DNA of 64,000 nucleotides, taken from the IMG/VR virus record IMGVR_UViG_2930414654_000002, positions 96-64,095 of that record; one strand, written 5' to 3'. This document shows positions 1,077 through 63,593 of the stretch, in pieces. Positions within the stretch are counted from its first letter, which is position 1. Every line of letters begins with the position of its first letter. Source of the stretch: a virus (taxonomy: Duplodnaviria > Caudoviricetes). The translations under genes and the position numbers were made by a program. Under the pieces are notes generated by a model. It saw nothing but the letters and a program-made list of their open reading frames with translations. It was not told where the DNA came from and did not search any database.

Positions 1077-1214
1077 TCAGCCCACCGGCTGGCCCGCGTG
1101 CGGGCTGAGGACACCTGCCGCCATCAGGGCGAAGAGGGCCACCCCGAGCAGGATCCGGTAGATGACGAACGGCATGAAGCTGCGGGTGGAGATGAAGCGC
1201 ATGAACCAGGTCAT
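1077..1214 (-). pseudogene. uppP: 3' fragment of undecaprenyl-diphosphate phosphatase, split by prophage insertion
   Basis: WFMRFISTRSFMPFVIYRILLG matches the UppP/BacA C-terminal helix (SF.PFV.YR..LG). Similarity stops at the integrase stop codon. Confidence 0.85.
1190..1213. other. Approximate left prophage attachment junction
   Basis: Switch from uppP coding sequence to the integrase stop. The partner att copy was not seen in the window, so the exact core is unknown. Confidence 0.6.
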
Positions 1215-2587
1215 CCATCGAACTCTTCGGCGGCCTTGACCTGCGCCTTCATCCACTCCATGAGCGGCGGTGGGAGAGGAATGGGAGAAGACTCCCACAG
1301 GCGTTCACCCTCCCGGGCGACAAACCGCATCCACCTGGCCTGCAGCGTTTCCATGATGGCCCGCTCCATGCCCGTTGTCACGTTCGCGTACAGGCCCTCC
1401 ACGCCCGCCACCTCGTGCCCCATGCGCGTCTCCGTCGCGATCCGGCTGTGCCCGTCCTCGTCCAACCACTCCTTGTGCCCGTGCCGCAGCAGGTACAGGC
1501 GCTTCCCCGCATAGCCCGTGGCCGGCAGCTCCGGCACCGGCCGCCGTGAGCCGGCCGTCTGCTGCTGACCCAGCCGCACACGCTCGTACCTCTCGCGGCT
1601 CTCCCTGCCGTCCGCGATGGGCCGCCAGTAGTGGTAGGTGAAGTTCGCGTTGGCGAGCGACCCGCCGCCGATACCGCGAAACACGGTCGGCGCCTCGTGC
1701 GAGTCGAGGAGCATCTCCAGCAGCTCCGCGAGGAACGCCGGCACCACCAGGTCCCGATACGACTCGTACTTCGGCGGGAACAGCTTGATGGGCCCGGTGC
1801 CGTTCTCCCGCTGGTACTGCCACTCGACGCGCAGCGCCGGCATGGGCTCGTCCCCGCGGTAGCGCTGCAGCGACTCCTCGCGCCGCTCCGGGTCCGGATC
1901 CGACGCCGGCCAGGCGGGGTGGCAGAACTCGCGGCGCAGGGCGTACAGCTCCCCGGGGCGCATCCCGGTGAACGGCATCGTGTACATGAAGACGTAGCCG
2001 TCGAGACCCCAGAAGGCGAGCGCGTTGAGTGCGAGACGGTGCACGTCCTCGATGCGCATTTCGCGCTTCTTCTCGCGCGGCTTCTTCTTGTACTTCCCGC
2101 GGCGGCTCTTGCGCTTCACGGGGGAGGCGGCCCGCAGCCCGTCGTCGACCGCGTCGTCCATCATCATCGAGAAGACCAGCAGGATCTCACCCGCATACCG
2201 GGTCCCGACGTTCGGCCGGGCCTTGAGCTCCTTCTCCCACAGCCGGTACTGGCTGGGCTTGATGTCGCCCACGGGGACGTCGCCCCAGCGGGGCTCGATG
2301 TACAGACGGATGAACGATCGGACGTTGTGCAGGCGCAGGTGGCCGACATCGAGGGTGTCGGGCCAGGTGCGGCAGTAGTCCCGCATCAGGATGGAGCCGT
2401 CGCGCCGGCTGATGTACCGGTCGTTGCGGACGTCGGCTTCCCGGTCGAGGCCGTAGTCGTATGCCTCGTCCTCGCTCCAGTCGGTGGACGACAGCGAGTC
2501 GTAGATCTTCTTGCCGGTGTCGGGGTCGACGCGGCCGGTGTCCCACCGCACTCGAACGCTGCGTCCTCGCCGCTCGATGTACGGCAT
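1211..2587 (-). CDS. int: Tyrosine integrase
   Basis: TGMRPGEL (Arg I), YLLRH, RMGH...GLY (His/Tyr); N-terminal arm-binding-like segment. Confidence 0.92.
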   Translation of the reverse strand: MPYIERRGRSVRVRWDTGRVDPDTGKKIYDSLSSTDWSEDEAYDYGLDREADVRNDRYISRRDGSILMRDYCRTWPDTLDVGHLRLHNVRSFIRLYIEPRWGDVPVGDIKPSQYRLWEKELKARPNVGTRYAGEILLVFSMMMDDAVDDGLRAASPVKRKSRRGKYKKKPREKKREMRIEDVHRLALNALAFWGLDGYVFMYTMPFTGMRPGELYALRREFCHPAWPASDPDPERREESLQRYRGDEPMPALRVEWQYQRENGTGPIKLFPPKYESYRDLVVPAFLAELLEMLLDSHEAPTVFRGIGGGSLANANFTYHYWRPIADGRESRERYERVRLGQQQTAGSRRPVPELPATGYAGKRLYLLRHGHKEWLDEDGHSRIATETRMGHEVAGVEGLYANVTTGMERAIMETLQARWMRFVAREGERLWESSPIPLPPPLMEWMKAQVKAAEEFDG

Positions 2588-3001: not shown

Positions 3002-3430
3002 CTAGCGCAACTTTCCTTGCCGTTCGAGTTCCTCGAGGACCTGCTGCTTGAGCTTCCGGATCTCGGGGGCGGGGAGGTCGGTCGTGGCGACCGCCGCGTC
3101 CTGCACTGCCTGGCCGACCGCGTCTTTGAGGTCGTCGGGTTGCACGGGGGAGATGACGGAGCCGTCGGGGCCCGGCTCGATGGTCGTGGGGCTGCCGCCG
3201 CGCAGGATCTCCTGGCAGGAGCCGGCGGCCCAGCCGAGCGCTGGTTCGATCTTTCCGTAGGTGTTGTCGCGGACGGACTGTCCGGCTTCGACCTGGTTGT
3301 AGGTGTTGATGTTGAGGTCGGCGTCGCGGGCGACGTCGACCTTCGTCTTTCCCAGTTGCGTGCGGCGTAGGCGTACCTGCTCGGCCAGCCTCAGGCGGTG
3401 TTCCTTGGGTGTGGAGGGCATGCCCCGCAT
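3002..3430 (-). CDS. Immunity repressor, XRE-family HTH
   Basis: VRLRRTQLGKTKVDVARDADLNINTYNQVEAG HTH; divergent from cro-like gene. Confidence 0.85.
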   Translation of the reverse strand: MRGMPSTPKEHRLRLAEQVRLRRTQLGKTKVDVARDADLNINTYNQVEAGQSVRDNTYGKIEPALGWAAGSCQEILRGGSPTTIEPGPDGSVISPVQPDDLKDAVGQAVQDAAVATTDLPAPEIRKLKQQVLEELERQGKLR

Positions 3431-3576: not shown

Positions 3577-3828
3577 ATGGAACAACCCCCAGCCACCTTC
3601 GAGGTGAACGGGGCGGCAGTCCGCACCATCCGAATGCGCCACGGGCTCGACCAGGCACAAGCGGCACATGCAGCAGGCATAACCGCCAGCTACCTGAGCC
3701 GCCTGGAGACCGGCACGCGCACCCGCATGAGGCCGGACACCTACGCCGCGCTCCGCACAGCCCTACGCGCCACCGACGACCAGCTCCTCGCACCACTCGA
3801 CGAGGAGCCCACCGAAGAGAAGAGGTGA
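3577..3828 (+). CDS. Cro-like XRE HTH protein
   Basis: GLDQAQAAHAAGITASYLSRLETG HTH. Confidence 0.85.
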   Translation: MEQPPATFEVNGAAVRTIRMRHGLDQAQAAHAAGITASYLSRLETGTRTRMRPDTYAALRTALRATDDQLLAPLDEEPTEEKR

Positions 3829-9324: not shown

Positions 9325-9498
9325 GTGCAGATCTCAACCACCGGAAACAAGATCCTCGTCGAACTCGACCACGAAGAAGCCGCCGCCGTCCGCGACGACC
9401 TCGGCGACATCTGGGCCAGCAAGGTCAGCACCGCTGGCGACCGCCTCCACAGCCTGCTGGAGGACACCACCGCCGTCACCGAGGAGGCGGCCCGATGA
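9325..9498 (+). CDS. Small hypothetical protein (57 aa, below the ORF-track cutoff)
   Basis: AGGAGG RBS + GTG; MQISTTGNKILVELDHEEAAAVRDDLG... Confidence 0.6.
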   Translation: MQISTTGNKILVELDHEEAAAVRDDLGDIWASKVSTAGDRLHSLLEDTTAVTEEAAR

Positions 9499-9869
9499 CC
9501 CGCCGCCTGTCTCCGGCTGAGCGTCTGGCCGCCACGGACCGGGACGCCACCCTCGCCGCCATCGCCGCCCGCACGTCCGACTGGGACCGGTTCCTGGTGG
9601 AGCAGGCCGTGTGGATGCTCGGCCTCCAGCAGGACGAGTTCTCCGCGAACGACGCACGCGGCCTCCTGCCCGACCTGGCGCACGGGCACCTCGGCGCCGC
9701 CTTCAACGCCCTCCGCTCCAGCGGGGTGATCGAACACACCGGGCAGTACGTGCCCTCCACCTCACCCACCACCCACGGACACCCCGTGGCGGTGTGGCAG
9801 CTCTCCATCAAGGGCCACCTCATAGCGATACAGCGCCGCCCCCGCCAGCAGGGGAGCGCCGCCGCATGA
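9495..9869 (+). CDS. Hypothetical winged-helix-like protein
   Basis: EFSAND...LGAAF..L...GVIEHTG.YVPST..THG.PVAVW. Confidence 0.7.
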   Translation: MTRRLSPAERLAATDRDATLAAIAARTSDWDRFLVEQAVWMLGLQQDEFSANDARGLLPDLAHGHLGAAFNALRSSGVIEHTGQYVPSTSPTTHGHPVAVWQLSIKGHLIAIQRRPRQQGSAAA

Positions 9870-10684
9870 AGCCGCCGGTGCCGTACTTCGGCGGGAAGGC
9901 CCGCATTGCGAAGTGGATCGTGTCGCTGCTGCCCGAGCACCAGCACTACGTCGAGCCGTTCTGCGGCGGCCTGTCCGTCCTGCTCGCCAAGCGACCAGCT
10001 GCGATGGAGACCGTCAACGACCTCGACGGCGAGCTGATGAACATGTGGCGAGTCCTGCGCGAGCGGCCCACCGAACTGGTCCGAGCCTGCGCCCTGACCC
10101 CGCACTCCCGGACCGAGCTCGCGGTCAGCCACGAGCCCGCGTCCGACGAGCTGGAGGCGGCTCGCCGCACTTGGTCCCGGCTCGCACAGGGACGGTCCGG
10201 CACGCTGCGACAGACCGGGTGGCGGCACTACATCGACCCCGCCGGCTCCACCATCGGCATGCCGGGCTACATGTCCGCCTACGTCGACCGGCTCGCCGCC
10301 GCAGCGGAACGTCTGTCCGCCGTGTCTCTGGAGTGCCTGCCCGCCCTCGACATCATCGGCAAGTACGGCGCTGCGAAGGACGTGCTGCTGTACGTCGACC
10401 CGCCCTACCTCGGCACCACCCGCCCGTTCAGCAACTACCGGTGCGAGATGCGCGGCGAGACAGACCACCGGGAGCTCGCGGCCGCACTGCACGACTGCCG
10501 ATCCGCAGTGGTGCTGTCCGGCTACGACAGCCCGCTCTACGACGAGCTGTACGCCGGCTGGAACCGCTACACGCAGCAGACCATGACCGGCAACGCCAAG
10601 ACCGCGAAGGACCGCACCGAAGTCGTGTGGTCAAACCGGGTCCTGGCAGGCCAGTACGACCTGTTCGCGGAGGTCTCGGCATGA
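9866..10684 (+). CDS. DNA adenine methyltransferase (Dam/D12 class), orphan
   Basis: PYFGGK, YVEPFCGG, VNDLDG, YVDPPY. Confidence 0.92.
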   Translation: MKPPVPYFGGKARIAKWIVSLLPEHQHYVEPFCGGLSVLLAKRPAAMETVNDLDGELMNMWRVLRERPTELVRACALTPHSRTELAVSHEPASDELEAARRTWSRLAQGRSGTLRQTGWRHYIDPAGSTIGMPGYMSAYVDRLAAAAERLSAVSLECLPALDIIGKYGAAKDVLLYVDPPYLGTTRPFSNYRCEMRGETDHRELAAALHDCRSAVVLSGYDSPLYDELYAGWNRYTQQTMTGNAKTAKDRTEVVWSNRVLAGQYDLFAEVSA

Positions 10685-11626: not shown

Positions 11627-12550
11627 GTGATGGGCATCAAGCGTGTCGTCGAAGTCCTCCTCCACGCTCCCGCCGACCTGACACCCGCCGAACGCATGGT
11701 GCTTGTGGCCATCGGCGAGAACGTCCGGGACGAGGACCCCCAGCGGAAGACGTGGCCTGACTTCAACGCGCACGTCCTGGCGCAGCGTGCGGGGCTCACC
11801 GGGCAGGGCAGCCTGAAGTCTGCTCTGCAGCGGTTGGCGAAGCGCGGCCTCGAGGTGCGTATCCCGATCACGTTCGGCAAGGACGGTCGTGCTCTGTATG
11901 CGGTGCCGGGCAAGCAGTGCCGGTACCGGTTCCCCACCCTCGCAGAAGGGGAGGCCACAACCTCCCCTTCGAGTGGCCAAGGGGAGGTCACAACCTCGCC
12001 AGGGGAGGTCACAACCTCCCCTAAGGGGAGGTCAGGACCTCGGCAGGCGGGGTCAGAACCTCCCCCTACCCCTACCCCTAAGACCCCTCCCCCCTCCAAG
12101 GAGGACGAGGGCCCCGCGGCGCCGTCGAACCTTGCCGATCGCAGACAGCAACAGAACGACGACCTCGCCGACGCAGCCGCCTTCCTCGAACAGCTCCCAC
12201 ACCCCTGGACCATCGGACCCGTCACCGCCAAAGCCATGGCACCCGACCTCCTCCAGGCCATCGACAGCCAGGGCTGGGACCTCGACGCCGAGCTCACCGC
12301 CAAGCTCACCGAGAACCCCGACGGCATCCGCAGCTACCCGCCGATCCTCCGACGCCGCATCGGAGACCTGCCCAAGCGCATCCGCAAGCCCGCACCCGTT
12401 CCCGACCACCTGCCGCCCTGGTGCGGCGAATGCGCCGACGGCAACCGCGTCGCCGCCCAGCAAGGCCACCTCCGGAAGCTCTTCGACGCCGACGGCAACG
12501 GACGGCCCTGCCCCAAGTGCCACCCCACCCAGACCAGCCACGCCGCCTAA
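11627..12550 (+). CDS. Phage replication initiator (lambda O-like position)
   Basis: N-terminal wHTH, internal iterons, C-terminal CGEC..CPKCHP; directly upstream of DnaB. Confidence 0.75.
   Translation: MMGIKRVVEVLLHAPADLTPAERMVLVAIGENVRDEDPQRKTWPDFNAHVLAQRAGLTGQGSLKSALQRLAKRGLEVRIPITFGKDGRALYAVPGKQCRYRFPTLAEGEATTSPSSGQGEVTTSPGEVTTSPKGRSGPRQAGSEPPPTPTPKTPPPSKEDEGPAAPSNLADRRQQQNDDLADAAAFLEQLPHPWTIGPVTAKAMAPDLLQAIDSQGWDLDAELTAKLTENPDGIRSYPPILRRRIGDLPKRIRKPAPVPDHLPPWCGECADGNRVAAQQGHLRKLFDADGNGRPCPKCHPTQTSHAA
11947..12066. repeat. Iterons / probable phage replication origin
   Basis: About five copies of the quasi-palindrome AGGGGAGGTCACAACCTCCCCT (11947, 11980, 12001, 12024, partial ~12049). 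Confidence 0.8.
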
Positions 12551-12567
12551 CCCCTCAGGAGCATCCC

Positions 12568-13902
12568 GTGACCGACGAACACCTCGAGCGCACCCCACCC
12601 CAGGACCTCGACGCCGAACGCTGCACCCTCAAAGGGATGATCCTCGCCAAGAGGGCCATCAGCGCCGCCGTCGAAACCGTCGAAGCCGACGACTTCTACC
12701 GCCCCGCCCACGCCTCCCTGTTCCGCGCCATCACCGACCTCTACACCCGCACCGAACCCGTCGACCAGGTCACCCTCGCCAACTACCTCCGCGAGCTCGG
12801 CATCCTCGGCCAGGTCGGCGGCCCCTCCTACATCGGCGAGATCCTCAGCGCTGGCACCACCCCGGCCAACACCGGCTACTACGCCGAGATCGTCCGCGAC
12901 TGCGCCGTCCGCCGCCGCATCGTCGAAGCAGGCATCCGCATCACCCAGATCGGATTCAGCGGGGAAGGCGAAGCCAGCGAAGCCCACGACGCCGCCCAGG
13001 CCGAACTCGCCTCCGTCACCACCATCCGCGAGGAAGCCGACTGTGCTCTCCTCGGCGACGACCTCCACGAGGTAGCAGCCGAGCTGGAGCAGCTCGCCGC
13101 CGAGGGCCGCAGCATGGGCGTCCCCACCGGCTTCGCCGACCTCGACACCCTCCTGCACGGCCTCCACCCCGGGCAGATGGTCATCATCGCGGGCCGGCCC
13201 GGGCTCGGGAAGAGCACTCTGGGCGTGGACATGCTCCGGTCCTGCTCCATCCGCTACAACCGGCCCGCCGCCATGTTCAGCCTGGAGATGTCCCGCCGCG
13301 GCGTGCAGCACCGCATCATCTCCGCCGAAGCCCGCATCGGCCTGCACAAGATGCGCGGCGGCCAGATGGCCGACCAGGACTGGGCCGCGTTCGCCAACAC
13401 GCTGACCAAGCTTCAGCAGGCGCCGTTGACCATCGAGGCCACACCCAACCGCACCCTCACCCAGATCAAGGCACGCTGCCGACAGATCAAGCAGCAGACC
13501 GGCCTCGACCTGGTCCTCATCGACTACCTGCAGCTCGTCGAGACCAGCGGCCGACGGCGGGCCGAGAACCGGCAGCAGGAAGTCTCCGAACTCAGCCGCG
13601 GCATCAAGCTCATGGCCAAAGAGTTGGGCGTCCCCGTGGTGGTGCTGTGCCAGCTCAACCGCGGGCCCGAACAGCGCACCGACAAGAAGCCGCTGCTGTC
13701 CGACCTGCGGGAGTCCGGCTCGCTGGAGCAGGACGCCGACGTCGTGATCCTCCTCCACCGCGAGGACGCCTACGACCCGTACTCGCAGCGCGCCGGTGAA
13801 GCCGACGTCATCGTCGCCAAGCACCGCGACGGCCCCCAAGCCACGATCACCGTGGCGTTTCAAGGGCACTATAGCCGTTTTGTCGACATGGCGGCGACAT
13901 GA
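12568..13902 (+). CDS. dnaB: Replicative DNA helicase
   Basis: AGRPGLGKS Walker A, FSLEM, IDYLQL, QLNRG, DLRESGSLEQDAD, KHRDGP. Confidence 0.96.
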   Translation: MTDEHLERTPPQDLDAERCTLKGMILAKRAISAAVETVEADDFYRPAHASLFRAITDLYTRTEPVDQVTLANYLRELGILGQVGGPSYIGEILSAGTTPANTGYYAEIVRDCAVRRRIVEAGIRITQIGFSGEGEASEAHDAAQAELASVTTIREEADCALLGDDLHEVAAELEQLAAEGRSMGVPTGFADLDTLLHGLHPGQMVIIAGRPGLGKSTLGVDMLRSCSIRYNRPAAMFSLEMSRRGVQHRIISAEARIGLHKMRGGQMADQDWAAFANTLTKLQQAPLTIEATPNRTLTQIKARCRQIKQQTGLDLVLIDYLQLVETSGRRRAENRQQEVSELSRGIKLMAKELGVPVVVLCQLNRGPEQRTDKKPLLSDLRESGSLEQDADVVILLHREDAYDPYSQRAGEADVIVAKHRDGPQATITVAFQGHYSRFVDMAAT

Positions 13903-14135
13903 ACTTCACCCCGGAAGACATGGCCGAGATCCGCAAGCAGGGCGATCTGAAGTCGCTGTTCGCCGCGCTCCTCGGCAAGCCCGCCCCGCAGCCCGAGCAG
14001 CCAGTCGAGGACGAGGCGCCGCCGTACCACATAGCGCGCCCCGGGGCCTGGCCGTGCGGCACCGCCGCCTCCGGGCCCATCCCCAGCCCCACCTGCCCTG
14101 ACTGCGCACCCCACTGGAAGGGAGAGACCGCATGA
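13899..14135 (+). CDS. Hypothetical phage protein
   Basis: ATGA coupling; RPGAWP.G motif. Confidence 0.6.
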   Translation: MNFTPEDMAEIRKQGDLKSLFAALLGKPAPQPEQPVEDEAPPYHIARPGAWPCGTAASGPIPSPTCPDCAPHWKGETA

Positions 14136-14329
14136 GCGACAACGGCTACGCCGATGGCTGCCCGCGCTGCCTGGCCGGCCCGACGGCGCCGACGACTGGT
14201 ATCGCCGCCCGCGGGTCCCTCACCGCCGCGTACCGGTGCCGGGCCTGCCGCCACATATGGACCTGCACCTGGGCCGTAGTGCCCGGCCGCGTCCTCCCAC
14301 CCCCGCCCCGACTGGAGGAGGCCGCATGA
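14132..14329 (+). CDS. Small Zn-ribbon protein
   Basis: CPRC...YRCRACRH.W. Confidence 0.6.
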   Translation: MSDNGYADGCPRCLAGPTAPTTGIAARGSLTAAYRCRACRHIWTCTWAVVPGRVLPPPPRLEEAA

Positions 14330-20455: not shown

Positions 20456-20929
20456 CTACTCCGCCTCGACCCAGTGCGCAGGACGGCTAGACACTCGCGT
20501 CTCACGGATGCAGATCCATTCAGCCCGACTGCGAGGCTTGCTGTTGTGCACGATGTTGTGTTGCGGCCGTTCTACCCTGATGGCGTGCGCCTCCACGGCT
20601 CGCGCTTCTGCTTGGCTGTCGCACCATTCGAGGCACAGGGTGGCGACCTCCGGCCACCATTTCTTGCTCTGTGCATGCTGTACCCAACGCTGCGGGGGCT
20701 TGGTGCTGATGCCGACATAGAGAAGCTGGTCATCACTGTCGCGGAGCCTGTACACCGCAGTACGGACGTCATCGCCCCGCGCTGCCGCCTCTTGCTTGGC
20801 GGCTTTCCTCCATGAGGTGTCCTCTTTGGGCTGTACGGCGTACCAGGTGTTTGGGTCATCCTCGATTTCAAAGGGGCCGAGGACAACGTAGTCGGTCATC
20901 TCCGAAGCGATGGGGTCGTCGATGCTCAT
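20456..20929 (-). CDS. GIY-YIG nuclease family protein
   Basis: AVYRL...LLYVGIS..P.QRWVQH...EAHAI...P.HN. Confidence 0.85.
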   Translation of the reverse strand: MSIDDPIASEMTDYVVLGPFEIEDDPNTWYAVQPKEDTSWRKAAKQEAAARGDDVRTAVYRLRDSDDQLLYVGISTKPPQRWVQHAQSKKWWPEVATLCLEWCDSQAEARAVEAHAIRVERPQHNIVHNSKPRSRAEWICIRETRVSSRPAHWVEAE

Positions 20930-22419
20930 CGTCCCTCCCCGTAGCTCCAGCGGCTCCCGGTGCCCCGATACTCAGATACCGGGATGGGCTCGACGCTCGG
21001 CCGCATGCGGGCCCGGTAGAGCATGCCGTGCAGGTGGTCGACTTCGTGGGCGACGAGCCGGGCCACGCCTCGCTCGAAGATCGTGATGCGCTTCTGGCCG
21101 TCGATGCCGGTGTGCTCGACGCTGACCGACAGGGGCCGGGGCACCATGCCACGCACGTCGAAAAAGCTCAGGCAGCCTTCGTACTGCTCGTCCGTCTCCT
21201 GCGACTCCTCGACGTACCGCGGATTCAGCAGCGTGATGCTCTCGCCGTCGGGGGTGCGGACGATGGCGGCAGCCCGGTCGATGCCGATCTGCGGGGCGGC
21301 GATGCCCATGCCCTTGCCGAAGTTGTGCACCGTGGATGCGCGCTCAGTCGCGGACACGAGCTCGGCGATGACGCGGCGGGCGTCCTCGGCCTCGTCAGGC
21401 AGGGTGAACTCGCGCGCCGTCTTCGTCAGGATCGGGTCGCCCTCCTGGACGATGCCGATCTCCTGCATGCGGTCGCTGGGCCTCACGGCGGTCACGTCCG
21501 TGGTGATCTCCTCCTCTGGTTGACTGCGGAACTTCCATTCGAGCCTGTAGCGGGCATGCAACGGCGGGTCCTCCGTCGACCACGAGAAGACGCGCCGGCC
21601 GTCCTCGTCGGTGCGACGGATCGCGGTACGGAACGGCATCGCCGTCGCTGTCATGGTGGTCTCGGTGCCCCACACGGTCGGGGCGAGATCGGCGGGGAAG
21701 TCCAGCCGGACGCTGAGCCGGCGGGTCGGGAGCCTCACGGCCCGCTGGAACCAGGATCCCCACTTGTCGTCGCCGACCGTGTAGCTGTACTCCAGCCACG
21801 CCGCCTCGCCCGGGTAGAGCGGGTAGCGGCCGTGCTCGTTCTCCAGCAGCAGCCACAGTTCCTTGAACGCGTCCCGGTCGTGCCGCACCGTCCACGTCAA
21901 CGGCTCACCGTCGATGCTGGCGCTGAGGTCGATCTCTCCCCAGGTCAGCGGGTTCTCCCGATAGTGCTGATTGGAGCGCTCCGGGTTGCCGGGGTAGCGG
22001 TCGACGGAGATGCGGATCAGGTACTGGGTGATCGGATCCGGGCTGTCGTTGTACAGGCGGCGGCGCTGCGTGGCCCGGTACGTCGACCCGTCGTAGAACA
22101 GGGCGGTGTCCTCGTGCTCGACGATGAGGCTCGCCTCGTGCGGTGCCCCGTGGTCCGGACCCGAATGCTGGGCGGGAACGGGCCGGCCCTGCGCTTCCAG
22201 CTCGCGGTAGGCGTGCACGATGGCACCACCAGCCCGGAGCACCGTGTCCGTCTGGCGGGCGAAGGACTCCGACGGTCGCTGGGTGCCGCCCTCGACCTTC
22301 GAGACGTAGGACGGCGTGTAGCCCACCGCCTGGGCGAGCTTCGACTGCGAGAAGCCTCGCACGTCCCGCCAGTACTTCAGCTCGGCGACGAAGTCGATGC
22401 CTTGCTGCCTTTCAGGCAT
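20926..22419 (-). CDS. XRE HTH - beta-rich domain - peptide deformylase fusion
   Basis: N-terminal HTH (SQSKLAQAVGYTPSYVSKVE); PDF motifs GMGIAAPQIG, EGCLS and HEVDH all intact. Confidence 0.9.
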   Translation of the reverse strand: MPERQQGIDFVAELKYWRDVRGFSQSKLAQAVGYTPSYVSKVEGGTQRPSESFARQTDTVLRAGGAIVHAYRELEAQGRPVPAQHSGPDHGAPHEASLIVEHEDTALFYDGSTYRATQRRRLYNDSPDPITQYLIRISVDRYPGNPERSNQHYRENPLTWGEIDLSASIDGEPLTWTVRHDRDAFKELWLLLENEHGRYPLYPGEAAWLEYSYTVGDDKWGSWFQRAVRLPTRRLSVRLDFPADLAPTVWGTETTMTATAMPFRTAIRRTDEDGRRVFSWSTEDPPLHARYRLEWKFRSQPEEEITTDVTAVRPSDRMQEIGIVQEGDPILTKTAREFTLPDEAEDARRVIAELVSATERASTVHNFGKGMGIAAPQIGIDRAAAIVRTPDGESITLLNPRYVEESQETDEQYEGCLSFFDVRGMVPRPLSVSVEHTGIDGQKRITIFERGVARLVAHEVDHLHGMLYRARMRPSVEPIPVSEYRGTGSRWSYGEGR

Positions 22420-22533
22420 GGGTCCCCCTGTGCCTGTGCGTGATCTATGAGTGAGTGCTGCTCACGGTGTCCTCATGTGTGCGCTCCGCGATTACCTCAA
22501 GGCATGACGGACGACGACATGAGCCAGTACGAA

Positions 22534-58031: not shown

Positions 58032-58190
58032 TCAGTTCTCCTTGTCGCCGTGCGCGTGGGAGAGGAGCCGGTGAAGCCCCCACGCCTCGGTGCTCGGCGC
58101 CAGCCCCAGCACGTCGCGGATCGCGTGCGCCTCTTCGTCGGTCAGTTCGACCGTCGTCGTGCCGTCCTTCTTGATGTCGACCAGTTTCAT
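58032..58190 (-). CDS. Small hypothetical protein (52 aa)
   Basis: AAGGAGG RBS; MKLVDIKKDGTTTVELTDEEAHAIRDVLG. Confidence 0.55.
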   Translation of the reverse strand: MKLVDIKKDGTTTVELTDEEAHAIRDVLGLAPSTEAWGLHRLLSHAHGDKEN

Positions 58191-58369
58191 GATGCGTCCT
58201 CCTTTTGTGGTTGTTGGGGGGTGTCCGTGGTGTCTTCCACGGGGGTGATGCGGGCGACGGGTTTCCCGTGGCGGGTGAGTGTGACGACCGCGCCGGTGTA
58301 GCGGACTTCGTTGACGAGGTCGCCGAGGGTCTTGCGGGCTTCCTCGATACCGACCTTCTTGCTCGACAT
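58187..58369 (-). CDS. Phd/YefM-family DNA-binding protein
   Basis: VGIEEARKTLGDLV..V......LTRHGKPVARITP. Confidence 0.85.
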   Translation of the reverse strand: MSSKKVGIEEARKTLGDLVNEVRYTGAVVTLTRHGKPVARITPVEDTTDTPQQPQKEDAS

Positions 58370-58589: not shown

Positions 58590-58847
58590 ATGGCACAGGA
58601 CTGGATCTCGATGGACCGCCCGTCGGCGGCCATCTTGGAGTTCAAGCTGGAGGAGCGGCGCAAGAAGATCACCCAGGGACTTCTTCAGCAGCCTGACTAC
58701 CCGCCGCTGCCGGAGTGCCCGGAGTGCGGGGCGGCGAGCGAGGCGATCGTTGATCGGCGCGACATGGACGACGCAGTCCTCATCGGCTTCAAACCTTGCG
58801 GCCACCGCTTCCGCGCGGAGCCGCCGTCGCTGGACAGCTACCTGTGA
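58590..58847 (+). CDS. Zn-ribbon protein
   Basis: GAGG RBS; CPECG...PCGH. Confidence 0.65.
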   Translation: MAQDWISMDRPSAAILEFKLEERRKKITQGLLQQPDYPPLPECPECGAASEAIVDRRDMDDAVLIGFKPCGHRFRAEPPSLDSYL

Positions 58848-59872
58848 CCGCCCTCGTTCCGCGCCCGTCGGCGGAGCTGTCGACCGACCGGCACGACCCC
58901 CGCGACGACTGGCACAAGCTGGCCCGCAACCTCGCCAACGACCTCGCCGAGATCTACGGCAACGGCGACCCCCTACCGACCGCCGCCGGGGCATGGATCG
59001 CCCGCCAGAAGTCAGACCACACGAAGCGTGCCTACGCGCGAGCGTTCCGACGCTGGGAGAAGTACGCGCGCAGCACCGGCACCCACCCCCTTCAAGCGAG
59101 GCTCCCCCTCGCGGACGCCTACGCCAACAACGTCGCGAAGACGCCCGGCCGCCAGGGGAAACCGCCCCAGGACACCACGCTCGCACAGACACTCTCAGGC
59201 GCCGCCTCGTTCTACGACTACGCCATCGAGGTAGGGCTGACGGAGGCCAATCCGTTCAACCGTGTCCAGCGTCCCACCATCGACCCCGACTACAGCCCGA
59301 CGGAGGGCCTTACCGAGCAGGAGACCGCCCGGCTCATCGAAACCGCACGCGACTGGGCACCCCGCTCCTACGCCCTCGTCACCCTCCTCTACCTCACCGG
59401 CGCCCGCATCGACGAACTCCTCTCGCTGAACGCCAACCAGCTCGGCTACAACCGAGGACATCGCACCCTGCCCCTCACCCAGAAAGGCAACAAGAAGCGG
59501 CCCGCACCCATCCCACCGCTCGCCCTCGAAGCGCTCCTCGCCTACCTCGGCGACCGGGAAGACGGCCCGCTGTTCACCACCGAGTCCGGCCGCCGCTGGA
59601 CGCAGCCCGAAGCGTGGAAACACCTCCGCGTCCTCGCCCGCCAAGCCGGCCTCCCGCAAGCCGCCAGCATCAAACCCCACACATTGCGGCACCAGTTCAT
59701 CACCGACAACCTCGCCAACGGCGTCCCTTTGCAGGACGTGCAAGACGCCGTATCCCACACCGACCCGCGCACCACCCAGCGGTACAACCGGCGCCGCCGC
59801 CAACTCGACGACCATCCCGCCTACAGCCTCGCCGCGAAACTCGCCGCCAGACTCACCGAAGAGGAGAAGTGA
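58844..59872 (+). CDS. Second tyrosine recombinase (Xer/resolvase-like)
   Basis: TGARIDEL, KG.K, PHTLRH, SHTDPRTTQRY; no arm-binding domain evident. Confidence 0.92.
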   Translation: MTALVPRPSAELSTDRHDPRDDWHKLARNLANDLAEIYGNGDPLPTAAGAWIARQKSDHTKRAYARAFRRWEKYARSTGTHPLQARLPLADAYANNVAKTPGRQGKPPQDTTLAQTLSGAASFYDYAIEVGLTEANPFNRVQRPTIDPDYSPTEGLTEQETARLIETARDWAPRSYALVTLLYLTGARIDELLSLNANQLGYNRGHRTLPLTQKGNKKRPAPIPPLALEALLAYLGDREDGPLFTTESGRRWTQPEAWKHLRVLARQAGLPQAASIKPHTLRHQFITDNLANGVPLQDVQDAVSHTDPRTTQRYNRRRRQLDDHPAYSLAAKLAARLTEEEK

Positions 59873-59874
59873 TC

Positions 59875-60150
59875 ATGACCCGCGCCTACGTGTACGGCGA
59901 GACCCCCTGGGACGTGGCGGGCCCGCTCGCCACCTGGAAGGGCACAACCAAGCAGTTCTCACCGGAGCACAGGGCCCTATTTCGAGAGGCGATGCAGACA
60001 AAGACGCCGCCGCCCTGCCCTGTCTGCGGAGAGCTGGTCGAGACCATGAACGCCGAATCCGTCTCAGTGCAGATGTACATGCACGAAGACTTCAAGGAGG
60101 TCGGTACGCTCGTCACCCTCGAACCTTGCGGGCACCACATGAAGCGCTGA
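59875..60150 (+). CDS. Zn-ribbon protein
   Basis: CPVCG...PCGH. Confidence 0.6.
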   Translation: MTRAYVYGETPWDVAGPLATWKGTTKQFSPEHRALFREAMQTKTPPPCPVCGELVETMNAESVSVQMYMHEDFKEVGTLVTLEPCGHHMKR

Positions 60151-60166
60151 CCCCGCCCGCACGCAT

Positions 60167-60199
60167 GGTGCCCCCGCCAGTCGTAGTGGCGGGGGCACC
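60167..60199. terminator. Hairpin between convergent operons
   Basis: GGTGCCCCCGCCA-N7-TGGCGGGGGCACC. Confidence 0.7.
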
Positions 60200-60210
60200 G
60201 TCGTGTGACC

Positions 60211-60453
60211 CTACCCGCTGCCAGGTGCCCATTCCCAGGCTCCGCCGCCGCGCCAGTCGATGAGCTGCGGGTCGTCGAGGCGGACATGCTCCCGCTCCAG
60301 CCCAACCGTCTCCAGCATGTCCAACACGTCCATCACGTTGTGGGCGACACCGAGGATCCGGCCGCGGGCCACCACCCGCCGGCCACCCTCACCATCCGGA
60401 GCATGCACCACCACCGGAGCAGCCATAAGCCCACCGTGCAGCACGATGGGCAT
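60211..60453 (-). CDS. Conserved hypothetical protein
   Basis: VVVH.P...GGRRV...LG.A.....D..E...L....LDDP.LI.WRGGG...W. Confidence 0.65.
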   Translation of the reverse strand: MPIVLHGGLMAAPVVVHAPDGEGGRRVVARGRILGVAHNVMDVLDMLETVGLEREHVRLDDPQLIDWRGGGAWEWAPGSG

Positions 60454-60468
60454 CGGCGCATCTCGAGA

Positions 60469-61356
60469 TCACCGCCGCCAGACGTTCACCCGTTCAGTGG
60501 AGAGCAGTGGGGCGCCGTCCGGCCCCTTCACGTAGGCGGGAATCCACTGCTGCCGTCGCTGCTCACGGCCGGGTCCGTATGGCTGGTTGCGCCAGTGGCC
60601 AGAGACCACCCACCTGTGCCGGTAGGTGCGCCCATCAGTCTCTTCGTCGGGGTCCCGGTCCTGGGGCCGGTACTGGCGGCGCAGACTCACCAGCGTGACG
60701 CCTTCGTCGGGAAGCTGGGCGCGGCGCAGCGATCGGGCGTCCCGCTTGGGCGTCTCCTCACGGGCGCGGTCAACGAGTTGCGGCTGCTGCATGAGGTGCC
60801 ACGCGGCGGATAGCGCGGCGACGATGGTCCGGGAAGGACGCATCCCCTCCCTGGCGGGCAGATCGTCGAGGGAGACGGGGTCGGCGGTGACCGGGAGGCG
60901 TACTTCCCGGATGGCCAGCATTGGGGGGAAGCGCTGCACTACTTCCGGCGGCAGCCCGGCTCCCATGCGTTCCCGGGTGGCGAGGTGCCACACGATGAGT
61001 GTCTGCTCTGGCCCGGGTCCCCACGCAAGGGCATCGACGGGCCCTGATTGACCGGGCGCCATCTCCACCATGCTGAGACCACCGTTGAACACGAGGAGGC
61101 CGACAGGGCTGGGCCGGTCGACGGTGGCCCAGCGTGCTGCGGCGAGCTGCTGCCCGGCATGCATGGCCAGCGCGGTCATGTCGTCGGCGGCCCAATACAG
61201 GTCGGCTGCCCGCAGGTGCGTGGTGAAGAGCTGAACGAGGTTGTCGTCCCCGGGAAGCATGCCCTTGGGGAGGCCGTCGCCAGCTAGGGACAGTCGCTCA
61301 GTCGCGCGGATACTCTGGGCCCGTTTACGGGGCAGTTGTCGTGGCTGGATGGTCAC
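60469..61356 (-). CDS. Hypothetical phage protein with V.GHWR.Q motif
   Basis: GTGA-coupled to the Aca2-like gene; HRWVVSGHWRNQ...WIPAYVKGP. Confidence 0.7.
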   Translation of the reverse strand: MTIQPRQLPRKRAQSIRATERLSLAGDGLPKGMLPGDDNLVQLFTTHLRAADLYWAADDMTALAMHAGQQLAAARWATVDRPSPVGLLVFNGGLSMVEMAPGQSGPVDALAWGPGPEQTLIVWHLATRERMGAGLPPEVVQRFPPMLAIREVRLPVTADPVSLDDLPAREGMRPSRTIVAALSAAWHLMQQPQLVDRAREETPKRDARSLRRAQLPDEGVTLVSLRRQYRPQDRDPDEETDGRTYRHRWVVSGHWRNQPYGPGREQRRQQWIPAYVKGPDGAPLLSTERVNVWRR

Positions 61357-61772
61357 TGCTGCTGCTCCACGCTGTCGGCGTAGGCGATGGACAGGCCGGG
61401 CACCTCCTGGGCGATGCGGGCGATGACAGCGCGGTGCCAGGAGGCGGGGAACGGGATCTCGGGGTGGGCGGCGTGGTACTCGGCGTCGTCCCGGTAGGTG
61501 ACCACTCCCGGCTCGGGCAGGTCCATCAGTTTGCCGATCAGGCCGGACACGAACTCGCCGGTCCGCTGCTCCAGGTCCTCGATCTCCAGGCGGACTCCGT
61601 CGGGGATGGCGTACTTCCCTGCTTCCCAGTGGCGGACGGTGCGGGCGCTGACGCCGAGGTGTTGGGCGAGCCATTCGGGGGTGAAGCCGAGCCATTCGCG
61701 GACGACCCGCAACTCGGCCGGGGTCATGCGCTCGTCCTCCGGCATGCCGGGCGGATCGGTGTAGTCGGGCAT
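61353..61772 (-). CDS. Aca2/YdiL (DUF1870)-like HTH repressor
   Basis: MT..EL...R..LG.....A...GVSARTVRHWEAG...IPDGV..EI..L...Y.D..EY.A.HP...V.A.I; both the HTH and the C-terminal pattern fit Aca2. Confidence 0.8.
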   Translation of the reverse strand: MPDYTDPPGMPEDERMTPAELRVVREWLGFTPEWLAQHLGVSARTVRHWEAGKYAIPDGVRLEIEDLEQRTGEFVSGLIGKLMDLPEPGVVTYRDDAEYHAAHPEIPFPASWHRAVIARIAQEVPGLSIAYADSVEQQQ

Positions 61773-61827
61773 GGTGCCTCCAGGGTGAGGCCCCCGACCG
61801 GGCGGTCGGGGGCTGTGAGTGATGCGG

Positions 61828-62160
61828 TCAGGCGTTGTCGACGTCGTGGCGCTGGATGATCGCGAAGAGGTCGATGTCCTCGATGATCTCGCTGATGTTC
61901 AGCTCGCCCTCCCAGGTGTAGTCGGCGGGGTAGAAGGGGCCGAGGAAGTCGTTGCCCGCCAGGTGCACGCCCTCGGGCAGTGCGTTGTCGATGGCGTCGC
62001 GGTAGTCGGAGGCGATGCGGTCGAGCGCGCCGGACGTCTCCATGCGCTGCTGCCATTCGCTGTCGCCGCCGTTGATGGCGTCCAGGATGCTGGCCTCGAC
62101 GCTCACGTTGAAGCGGTCGCCGTGGTTGCACCAGGTGCCGTAGCCGGTGGTGGTGGTCAT
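61828..62160 (-). CDS. Small acidic protein, candidate anti-CRISPR/anti-defence
   Basis: 110 aa, about 21 D/E vs 5 R and no K; directly upstream of the aca2-like gene. Confidence 0.7.
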   Translation of the reverse strand: MTTTTGYGTWCNHGDRFNVSVEASILDAINGGDSEWQQRMETSGALDRIASDYRDAIDNALPEGVHLAGNDFLGPFYPADYTWEGELNISEIIEDIDLFAIIQRHDVDNA

Positions 62161-62201
62161 AGCTGTCCCCTTATTTCTCGGTTCGGATGTGTGCTGGTGG
62201 T

Positions 62202-62708
62202 TCAGAGGGCGGCGATGGCGCCGCGGATGCCGGAGACGACGGCGGCGAAGACCTCGTCGCGGTCGGCGACGCGGGACTCGCTCCAGCCGAAGCGGGCGTG
62301 GATCTTGCCGGTGGCGGCGTCGAACCACACCTTGTCGATGCAGCCGAGGAGCTTGCTCGCCTGGCTGTTGGAGATGCCTGCGCCCTGGTAGCTGGCGGAG
62401 GCGATGTTGCCGGTGTTGTAGTGGCTGGTCTCGATGCCCGCGAAGTGTGCCCAGTTGTTGATGTAGACGCGGTCGTGGCCGTTCTTCTGCCAGCGGTTGC
62501 CGCCGATGGCGGTCATGGTGTCGACGGTGAACTCGACTGTGCGGGCGGGCCGCTTGAGGGCGCCGATGGCGATGCGGGCGGCGAGGGAGGCGGAGTCGAT
62601 GACCCAGCGGCCGGCCTGCTTGACGGCGTTGATGGCTCCGTAGCGGCACCAGGTGCGGATGGTGGCGACGGTGACGTTGGCCTCGGCGGCGGCGGCGGTG
62701 GTGTTCAT
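62202..62708 (-). CDS. HTH-fused protein, candidate anti-defence
   Basis: N-terminal MerR/HTH_17-like (VTVATIRTWCRYG...GRWVID) plus a W.K.G..RVY.N domain; first gene of the operon. Confidence 0.75.
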   Translation of the reverse strand: MNTTAAAAEANVTVATIRTWCRYGAINAVKQAGRWVIDSASLAARIAIGALKRPARTVEFTVDTMTAIGGNRWQKNGHDRVYINNWAHFAGIETSHYNTGNIASASYQGAGISNSQASKLLGCIDKVWFDAATGKIHARFGWSESRVADRDEVFAAVVSGIRGAIAAL

Positions 62709-62762
62709 CGACCGGTTCCTTCCGGCGGGGTCTGGGGCTGTTCCCCTGACCTCATGACAACC

Positions 62763-62791
62763 ACAGTAGCTTCCAAATGTGGAAGGCGCAA
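62763..62791 (-). promoter_or_regulatory. Sigma70-type promoter with an operator palindrome in the spacer
   Basis: TTGCGC-N17-TACTGT; the spacer holds CTTCCA-N4-TGGAAG (62770-62785). Confidence 0.7.
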
Positions 62792-62832
62792 GGGGTCTCC
62801 GTGACTCCCCTCTGCCTGTGCCATACTCAGCG

Positions 62833-63000
62833 AGCCACCGCCTGTGTGAGGCGCGCAGCCCGTTTTCTCCTTGAGTGACTGCGGTTGCCTACCTGCACGC
62901 GCAGGCCTGGTGTGCGTCGGCTCTTGCATGGTGCCCGGCGCCTGCTCCCCGCCACTGCGGGGCTAGCGTCAAGCCTCCGCCACACAGGCGGAGGCTTTCG
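62833..63000 (+). ncRNA. Putative small RNA with type I-E CRISPR-repeat-like unit(s)
   Basis: -10-like CATACT at 62822; repeat-like CTGCTCCCCGC-CACT-GCGGGG-CTAGCGTC (62942-62970); terminator AAGCCTCCGCC-ACACA-GGCGGAGGCTT (62971-62997). Confidence 0.5.
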
Positions 63001-63158
63001 CACGTTCACGAACCGCCGGGGGTCCGCACCGCATCCCGAGCCCCCGCCGCTTGTCACCGGGCCCTGTCACACTGGGTGCATCACATCCATCATGCTGGCT
63101 GCATGTGGACGGACGGCCCCGCTACAGCGCAGCGGGGCCGGATCCGTAAGGAGAGGCA

Positions 63159-63593
63159 ATGGGCGACCTGGTGGCGTTCCTGCGGGCACGGATCGACGAG
63201 GAGGCTGAGGAAGCTCGCGCGGCTGCGGAGAAGGCCGGTTCCGGGGACTGGCGGTTCAAGGACGACGACGACTGCGTGTCCGCCGTCGACACCAACGAAC
63301 GCGCCGCCACGGACGCACCGACCTACGCCCGCGAACACTGGATGCCGCTCGTTACCGAAGCCAGCTCCTACATCGGCGACACGATCGACAACGAGATCGG
63401 CCGCTTCATCGCCCGCCACGATCCGACCCGCGTCCTCGCCGAGGTTGCTGCCAAGCGGCGTATCCTCCGGTGGCACCTCGACGAAGAGTGCTGTTCCGTC
63501 TGCCTCGACGACGTCGAAGGATGCCCGCTGTTCCGGGCCCTCGCCCTGCCCTACGCGGGTCACCCCGACTACCGCGAGGAGCGGCGGCCATGA
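63159..63593 (+). CDS. DUF6221-like phage protein
   Basis: LVAFLRARIDEE...IARHDP.RVLAEV.AKR.I...LALPYA.HPDY. Confidence 0.8.
   Translation: MGDLVAFLRARIDEEAEEARAAAEKAGSGDWRFKDDDDCVSAVDTNERAATDAPTYAREHWMPLVTEASSYIGDTIDNEIGRFIARHDPTRVLAEVAAKRRILRWHLDEECCSVCLDDVEGCPLFRALALPYAGHPDYREERRP

Follow-up and report, generated by a model that had tools for sequence, protein, structure and literature searches.

What is the function of the run of five tightly packed genes, here called A to E, that occupies the minus strand from 62708 down to 60211 in the Caudoviricetes (Duplodnaviria) record IMGVR_UViG_2930414654_000002? The stretch analysed, referred to below as the window, comprises 64,000 nucleotides (positions 96 to 64,095) and is nearly all of this 64,095-bp IMG/VR provirus record. 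Since the record is classified as a provirus with a CheckV completeness of 100%, the view of a first-pass annotation that the DNA represents a prophage can be upheld. The same annotation described A to D, which direct reading locates exactly where it had placed them, as a candidate anti-CRISPR (Acr) operon with an Aca2-like repressor, and proposed that the two genes upstream of the repressor encode new anti-CRISPR or other anti-defence proteins. The locus probably represents a self-limiting accessory operon of Aca2 type in a temperate Streptomyces phage, and its cargo would most likely counteract host defence or rival mobile elements. The assignment as an Aca2 operon is well supported as regards regulator, operator and architecture.

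The argument starts from C (61353-61772, minus strand), a 139-aa regulator with a helix-turn-helix (HTH) domain. C scores 29.1 bits against the Pfam profile Aca2_YdiL (PF08965; cut-off 23.8), with residues 16-104 aligned to profile positions 1-92 of 118, and 33.2 bits against HTH_31. Its three best PDB sequence matches are all Aca2 (8w35_A at an E-value of 2.4e-9, 7vjo_B and 7b5j_A; E up to 1.4e-8). The match spans residues 16-106 and so covers the dimerisation domain as well as the HTH; the next matches, HigA-2 antitoxins, are a million-fold weaker. Both comparisons bear out the naming of this gene as an Aca2/YdiL-like repressor in the first-pass annotation, and by sequence C is a true Aca2 homologue. 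R44 of C aligns with R30 of Aca2 and is at least 90% conserved among 18 family members. According to the available text of PMC8434428, R30 is needed for autoregulation by the Aca2 protein of phage ZF40. A tblastn search with C against 50,697 phage records matched 60 records, including 2 from Pectobacterium phages, 52 from Mycobacterium phages and the Streptomyces phage Gilgamesh. Gilgamesh (129 kb) encodes a protein, gp87, that is 76% identical to C; its gene adjoins lysis and terminase genes, and no integrase is present in the 7.4-kb stretch inspected around it. In phage Corndog, the Aca2-like gene terminates a string of small genes that faces the lysis cassette.

The operon is preceded by a candidate promoter consisting of a -35 hexamer TTGCGC (62786-62791, minus strand) and a -10 hexamer TACTGT (62763-62768, minus strand; TAnnnT), both read directly and separated by a 17-nt spacer. 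This spacer is filled by the dyad CTTCCACATTTGGAAG (62770-62785; core TTCC-N6-GGAA), the predicted binding site of a C dimer. The promoter and the CTTCCA-N4-TGGAAG palindrome are present just as the first-pass annotation described them. The palindrome has a single exact match in the 64 kb, and four matches are found with up to two mismatches, versus 1.26 expected. The likeness to a sigma-70 promoter is weak, with three of six positions matching in each hexamer, and a consensus sigma-70 scan of 59800-63300 called no promoter.

The same arrangement can be followed in relatives. IMG/VR contributed 16 loci with a C homologue and species-representative genomes 37, of which 36 were confirmed on re-scan, and the set including the window comprises 53 loci, 47 of which are distinct. 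They stem from Streptomyces, Streptosporangium, Actinoplanes, Micromonospora, Amycolatopsis, Lentzea and other genera. The -35 hexamer, the dyad, the TAnnnT element and the subsequent leader block can be aligned in 33 distinct loci (alignment A6). The TTG of the -35 hexamer is nearly invariant, the -10 hexamer always reads TAnnnT at N17 spacing, and its T-A start, which adjoins the dyad on the 3' side, is conserved to at least 90%. Conservation starts sharply at ccTTG and ends at the ATG, and there is none upstream of the -35 hexamer. Because promoter and dyad are conserved across loci next to unconserved upstream sequence, they are more than a chance occurrence. Within 1.5 kb upstream of C, the leader core CCGGAAGGAACCGG is found with up to two mismatches in 38 of the 47 distinct loci, 34 of which have, 30-95 nt further upstream, a perfect dyad as well. 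The misses include the short-cut contigs L039, L043, L067 and L068, variant dyads outside the frame of the script (L018, L074), as well as divergent homologues with an identity of less than about 65%.

The commonest dyad is GCTTCCTAAATTAGGAAGC, with N7 between the TTCC and GGAA cores, while the window and some of the loci that contain A have CTTCCAnnnnTGGAAG, with N6. The dyad of L018 and L074 reads (G)CCCTAAnTTAGGG(C) and that of L062 reads GTGTCCTAATTTAGGACAC. The variants GCCCTAAATTAGGGC and GTGTCCTAATTTAGGACAC, found in three loci with altered outer arms, remain symmetric. Variation of the arms with retention of symmetry fits the operator of a dimer, and from the sequence we infer that the dyad is the operator of C.

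Two hairpins are predicted in the leader that follows the promoter. The RNAalifold consensus of 32 loci contains hairpin 1 (62729-62751, minus strand), with the sequence GGUC-A-GGGG-AACAG-CCCC-A-GACC, and hairpin 2 (62712-62725, minus strand), with the sequence CCGG-AAGGAA-CCGG, which has the Shine-Dalgarno sequence in its loop, 3 nt before the ATG of A. In the alignment, 96.4% of the cells are paired, and this value drops to 58-60% in slid controls. Double changes occur in 3 of 12 pairs versus 0.7 expected, a value matched by 5 of 500 shuffles; the pairs of hairpin 2 are almost invariant and hence show little covariation. The z-score of the single-sequence fold is -1.82, and a search of Rfam with the leader returned no family. 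Taken together, the sequence data give moderate support to a two-hairpin structure. A further, GC-rich hairpin, GCCCCCGACC-gccc-GGUCGGGGGC (61790-61813, minus strand), lies between B and C and has no U tract. Among 34 distinct loci, Gilgamesh included, 28 have a perfect stem of at least 7 bp between the stop codon of the gene preceding C and the ribosome-binding site of C. The stems average 9.1 bp, a length of 7 bp being reached by 6% of shuffles, and they are GC-rich with a sequence that differs from locus to locus. This pre-C hairpin may act as an attenuator or as a 3'-end stabiliser that favours the cargo over the repressor.

The best reference for this architecture is the acrIF8-aca2 operon of Pectobacterium phage ZF40. 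Its promoter has a -35 hexamer TTGCTT and an N17 spacer, and inverted repeat 1 (IR1; core TTCG-N6-CGAA) blocks both -35 and -10, as far as the available parts of Birkholz 2019 and Usher 2021 describe it. The dyad of the window occupies the promoter spacer just as IR1 does, which agrees with the first-pass annotation. In both systems the regulators are homologous over the HTH and dimerisation domains with the key arginine retained, 4-nt dyad cores separated by N6 lie in a 17-nt promoter spacer next to a similar -35 hexamer (TTGCGC here, TTGCTT in ZF40), the 5' untranslated region (5'UTR) is structured (by prediction in the window), and a small variable gene precedes aca on a prophage. They differ in the half-site, which is TTCC here and TTCG in ZF40, and most relatives have N7. 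None of the payloads is related to AcrIF8, C is preceded by up to two genes (A and B) and followed by two (D and E), a GC hairpin separates payload and aca, and the host is an actinomycete.

The variable part of the operon is the position immediately before C. A and B immediately precede the aca gene within a single operon of a mobile element, and this order is repeated in relatives. Across the loci with a C homologue, the slot before C swaps among at least eight acidic families that are unrelated by BLAST clustering and encode proteins of 60-226 aa with an isoelectric point (pI) of 4.1-4.6. The family number is a minimum because the gene calls are rough, some rows representing open reading frames (ORFs) in the wrong frame and B itself having been missed in the window and in locus L007. 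The largest family, F1, occupies 18 distinct loci and the B family, by tblastn, 10; the two are unrelated (hhalign probability 0.1%). The other occupants are three families present in 2-3 loci each and three singletons. In Gilgamesh, the C homologue is preceded by gp86 (107 aa), which is unrelated to B, and none of nine slot proteins matched a Pfam family at cut-off.

B (61828-62160, minus strand), a very acidic orphan of 110 aa, is the payload candidate of the window. It contains 21 aspartate and glutamate residues versus 5 lysine and arginine residues, and its pI of 4.05 is the floor of the calculator; a pI below 4.3 is found in 1% of 82 roughly called ORFs of the window. Compared with L007, the closest relative, B is 78% identical, versus 96% for A and 93% for C. 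For B, the ratio of nonsynonymous to synonymous substitution (dN/dS) amounts to 0.65, compared with 0.30 for C; this is weak evidence because it comes from a single pair. B has no match in Pfam or PHROG, and its only NCBIfam match is far below threshold (GatD, 17 bits versus 450). All 28 homologues have the source name 'hypothetical', and those with a named organism are all from Streptomyces; the exact B sequence was also found on a 637,847-bp contig. The AlphaFold2 (AF2) model of B is confident, with a mean predicted local distance difference test (pLDDT) value of 87.8 and a predicted template-modelling score (pTM) of 0.80. Its sole BFVD match at E<=0.001 is an unnamed viral protein of 387 aa, and weak matches lead to Propionibacterium phage proteins without assigned function. 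Because it is a swappable, small and very acidic orphan directly before C, the classic guilt-by-association pattern, B is a reasonable sequence-based candidate for an anti-defence protein. The first-pass proposal that both upstream genes counteract defence can be retained for B and is weak for A, as detailed below. Its more specific term, anti-CRISPR, is not supported, as the evidence does not indicate any target defence.

Locus L024 and the second operon of L041 contain B-like proteins of a different design. No C follows in these cases, and the B-like domain bears a shared C-terminal tail of 65-70 aa (E 9e-7 between the two). There is no support for reading this tail as an HTH: it matches no Pfam family, its best hit is HTH_Crp_2 at E 0.02, and hhalign detects no similarity to A. 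Ocr and ArdA are acidic DNA-mimic inhibitors, and AcrIIA1 and AcrIF24 are self-regulating HTH-Acr fusions. B resembles the former pair in being small and strongly net negative, and the tailed proteins without C in L024 and L041 recall an inhibitor fused to its own regulator. Unlike these examples, B has no significant fold or sequence likeness to solved proteins, and the tail is not supported as an HTH. L041 contains two tandem cargo operons, the first (9398-10393) with a leader, an F1-type acidic gene and C, and the second (11863-14187) with an A-like gene, a tailed B-like gene, a gap and a D homologue (63% identity), again lacking C. In L024 (4528-7673), A and the tailed B are followed by genes for a 273-aa protein with repeated HTH domains and a 758-aa ResIII/DEAD helicase with four HA domains (218 bits). 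L011 encodes a 483-aa multi-HTH protein after C.

D (60469-61356, minus strand; 295 aa) is coupled to C via the sequence GTGA, in which the GTG start codon of D overlaps the TGA of C, as previously annotated; this start agrees with the N-termini of homologues. By precomputed annotation of its homologues and by the names of ESM Atlas clusters, D appears to be AcrVA2/FinQ-like (PF26125). PF26125.1 is annotated on 46 of 120 listed D homologues, including the closest, which is 89% identical, and in the ESM Atlas the three top clusters, each with a score of 0.98, carry PF26125 'AcrVA2-like' on 46, 27 and 17% of their members. D also belongs to phrog_15934 (6e-40), which has no assigned function. 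The family comprises 6,688 clusters at 50% identity (E<=0.001). D has the motif G253-H254-W255-R256; across 80 members of the family, conservation reaches at least 90% at each of H254, W255 and R256. The available text of Marino et al. (bioRxiv 10.1101/2022.11.29.518452) states that AcrVA2 requires a conserved C-terminal HxR motif (H286, R288) for mRNA knock-down, that the motif is common to FinQ, which inhibits F-plasmid conjugation, and that family members reside on diverse mobile elements, mostly without Cas12a. As H254-W255-R256 matches this essential HxR, the 'GHWR motif' of the first-pass annotation, which was correct as an observation, is the HxR motif; the AcrVA2/FinQ connection that follows from the homologue annotation had been missed.

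D shares with AcrVA2 and FinQ its length of about 300 aa, its location on a mobile element, the C-terminal HxR and a very large family. A search for Cas12a in five host genomes of related loci gave no match, as would be expected from what the source says of most members, with the limit that control genomes were also negative. D differs from the known members by its coupling to an aca gene. The order C-D is found in 8 of the 47 distinct loci, with the GTGA overlap in the window, L009 and L010, and D homologues without an Aca2-like partner are found in phi16, G4, BigBern1 and Yara, where the gene sits after a D5-type primase gene. In phi16 (L001, 3974-5727) and BigBern1 (L004, 3836-5529), the D homologue is followed by an overlapping gene for a XerC/D-like tyrosine recombinase of 285-295 aa, which is distinct from the main integrase of the phage. 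A 358-aa recombinase of XerC/D-like type is also encoded in the window, convergent and 340 nt beyond E.

A (62202-62708, minus strand; 168 aa) is a basic protein with a pI of 9.7. Its AF2 model (pLDDT 93.3) has a winged-helix head (residues 1-50) of the Xis/MerR/BldC type, and in Foldseek only this head matches known structures, namely Pukovnik Xis, BldC and RacA, at template-modelling scores (TMt) of 0.64-0.81. The superposition on Pukovnik Xis has a root-mean-square deviation of 0.9 Å (TMt 0.74-0.77). The conserved α/β C-terminal domain of about 110 aa has no PDB fold match. At the sequence level, A scores 23.4 bits against HTH_17 (cut-off 27), the ESM Atlas yields only an HTH_17 lead of 0.79, which is below the reliability bar, and tblastn against phages returned four partial matches, none with a function. 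There are 598 homologues, and the best 120 listed are 63-100% identical and come from Streptomyces, Kitasatospora and Streptosporangium; many of these 120 are on contigs of 85-95 kb, and two source names mention a plasmid. In 10 of the 47 distinct loci, irrespective of an adjacent integrase, the gene that opens the operon behind the leader is A; the other 37 lack it. A second match to the leader core is located between the first leader and C in L008, L009, L010, L059 and L061, and in L008-L010 a leader-like sequence immediately precedes the start of the slot gene. Its basic nature, its many homologues, its head and its presence in few loci make A a poor anti-CRISPR candidate, and judging from the model, it is probably a regulator or a DNA-binding accessory protein. 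A was also considered as a DNA-binding Acr of the CasPR type, which was rejected, as CasPR combines CapR and AP2 domains and stems from Bacillota. The DNA of A is nearly identical to L007 3059-3565 (dS 0.017), whereas the neighbouring B and C have dS values of 0.15-0.20, suggesting a recent recombination breakpoint between A and B.

Operons of this kind have already been described. In its available text, PMC13551039 (NAR 2026) reports that Aca2 binds two conserved 5'UTR hairpins, that an 'actino-motif' RNA has been defined upstream of actinobacterial acr-aca2 operons (citing Birkholz et al. 2024 Nature), and that DEAD/HA-domain helicases occur downstream of aca2. As far as this text goes, actinobacterial Aca2 operons with an RNA motif are in print, and the kind of locus is not new. 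The window shares with the actino-motif operons a conserved leader with two predicted hairpins just downstream of the promoter dyad, an operon ending in the Aca2 gene and residence on actinomycete elements, and a DEAD/HA helicase is part of the gene string in L024, though L024 itself has no Aca2 gene. The leader of the window is probably the published actino-motif, and the published operon lists may include this locus and its payload families. The literature search revealed neither a paper that deals with such loci in Streptomyces nor a functionally tested phage counter-defence protein for this genus.

Combining these data leads to the following model. Upon entry or induction, host RNA polymerase would start at TTGCGC-N17-TACTGT, and the transcript would open with a conserved leader of about 50 nt, of which hairpin 2 would display the ribosome-binding site of the first gene. 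The DNA-binding protein A and the acidic orphan B would be produced first, while the GC hairpin after B would reduce or stabilise what reaches C. As C accumulates, it would dimerise, bind TTCC-N6-GGAA between the -35 and -10 hexamers and close the promoter; by analogy to the Aca2 of ZF40, binding of C to the leader hairpins may also block translation. B would directly inhibit a nuclease-type host defence, possibly by nucleic-acid mimicry, and D, translationally coupled to C, would lower the mRNA of one specific target protein through its HxR motif. This target is taken to be a protein other than Cas12a, given the negative search in the sampled hosts, in which the controls were negative as well. 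A more detailed version is possible, on balance rather doubtful: the slot would represent a store of at least eight inhibitor families directed against actinomycete defences such as type I CRISPR-Cas, Pgl/BREX and restriction, B would be an acidic inhibitor with a new fold, D an mRNA silencer of AcrVA2 type, guided by nascent chains, that has been redirected from Cas12a to some Streptomyces protein, and the GC hairpin an attenuator that sets the ratio of inhibitor to repressor. In the host genomes of five related loci, cas1 is above cut-off in three and cas3 in four, with both genes co-located, so that a type I CRISPR target is possible, but not indicated.

Several observations weigh against an operon dedicated to counter-defence. 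The payload proteins show no likeness to known Acr or anti-restriction proteins by Pfam, PDB sequence or fold, and the model of B has no match among PDB folds at E<=0.001, with a best TM-score of 0.31. For D, neither the sequence nor profiles of 36 and 80 members detect a PDB chain at E<=0.1 (profile hits at E 0.69 and 1.1), and its link to Moraxella AcrVA2 is indirect, via the annotation of homologues. D and E are located downstream of the aca gene, unlike the textbook acr-aca order. A is more conserved and widespread than typical Acrs, and it is basic with a head of DNA-binding type. Support for the leader hairpins by covariation is modest because the sequence hardly varies, and cas1 is lacking in two of the five host genomes sampled. 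Finally, Aca2/YdiL-like regulators are also found outside anti-CRISPR contexts, as stated in the available text of PMC8434428.

This last point also favours an explanation in terms of host take-over or phage regulation, in which an Aca2-like autorepressor would time acidic inhibitors of host transcription, replication or a phage regulator, and A would be a transcription factor for other phage promoters. The conservation and DNA-binding type of A, the absence of payload matches to known anti-defence families and the divergent orientation of the operon relative to an early DUF6221 gene at 63159 are in line with it. Core take-over functions are usually conserved. The slot swaps at least eight unrelated families while regulator and promoter stay constant, and the D family is known, in the available text of its source, for anti-CRISPR activity and inter-element conflict, which makes this explanation unlikely. 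D could alternatively be a toxic effector restrained by C, in a prophage defence or toxin-antitoxin-like module that protects the lysogen from phages and plasmids. The GTGA overlap of C and D in three loci, the weak matches of C to the antitoxin-type HTH families HigA-2 and MqsA, the inhibition of F-plasmid conjugation by the relative FinQ reported in the text cited above, and a Phd-like antitoxin gene nearby could be explained in this way. A module of this type is very unlikely, however, as D follows C in so few of the distinct loci, D homologues exist without an Aca2-like partner in four phages, and PADLOC has no match for D, B or E. It also overlaps in part with the counter-defence operon, whose cargo already includes a D protein acting on rival elements.

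The least probable explanation is a lysogeny or excision module with A as the excisionase (Xis, a recombination directionality factor), C as a Cro/CI-like switch and, as their partner, the tyrosine recombinase encoded at 58796-59872 (Phage_integrase, 92.3 bits), with which the operon is convergent. The head of A does superpose on the Xis of mycobacteriophage Pukovnik, an Int358-type recombinase adjoins the operon in the window, L011/L044 and L064, and the genome contains just one other, weak, HTH_17 match. However, A is 168 aa long with a conserved extra domain of 110 aa, in comparison to about 50-110 aa for excisionases, and is missing from most of the distinct loci, while the best PDB sequence relatives of C are Aca2 and not CI or Cro. 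The Gilgamesh homologue of C lies beside lysis and terminase genes, without an integrase in the stretch inspected. Moreover, a divergent HTH_31 pair (3002-3430, minus strand, 142 aa; 3577-3828, plus strand, 83 aa) is likely a CI/Cro-type immunity switch, so that this function can be served apart from C. In L047 and L058, the Aca2 operon has a homologue of the 142-aa protein at a distance of 3-4 kb.

As a probable Aca2-controlled accessory operon, the locus is a good candidate place to look for new counter-defence proteins of phages. In Streptomyces, the main genus of antibiotic producers, strain engineering is limited by phages and defence systems. The cassette of promoter, dyad and leader offers a search handle for such genes, which here yielded the candidate families of the slot, and the pairing of an AcrVA2/FinQ-like gene with an Aca2 regulator provides a place to ask what this family targets beyond Cas12a. 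Should the cargo be inert against defence, the locus would still show the reach of the Aca2 regulatory design into actinophages.

The surroundings of the operon contain further features. E (60211-60453, minus strand; 80 aa; phrog_17005, 1.2e-23) is the last gene of the run and absent from the list of the first-pass annotation; it accompanies the operon in L009 and, on the opposite strand, in L022. Structural and lysis genes occupy 35-57 kb of the window, and in L038 and L065 the operon likewise converges on the end of a tail and lysis block. No tRNA and no convincing direct repeats that could mark att sites were found within the window. A and the DUF6221 gene diverge from a 450-bp intergenic region, in which an inverted repeat with perfect arms of 11 bp and a loop of 5 nt is located (62971-62997; AAGCCTCCGCC / GGCGGAGGCTT). 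Between the lysis genes and the recombinase, a Phd/YefM-type antitoxin gene (58187-58369, minus strand; 40.4 bits), which is also present in L009, overlaps by 4 nt with a family-less 52-aa ORF (58032-58190, minus strand), forming a possible toxin-antitoxin pair.

Further away, a 458-aa ORF with a strong coding signal (1211-2587, minus strand) lies downstream of the CI-like gene and has no match in Pfam, NCBIfam or PADLOC. At 11947-12065, a 21-nt unit (AGGGGAGGTCACAACCTCCCC-like) is repeated five times in tandem, with 81-100% identity and a spacing of 21-33 nt, resembling the iterons of a replication origin. A 511-aa protein encoded at 20926-22461 (minus strand), against the flow of the early genes, combines an N-terminal XRE-type HTH (HTH_31, 7.5e-11) with a C-terminal peptide deformylase domain (1.3e-31); its head weakly matches a capH-like PADLOC model, and the fusion is 74% identical in L058.

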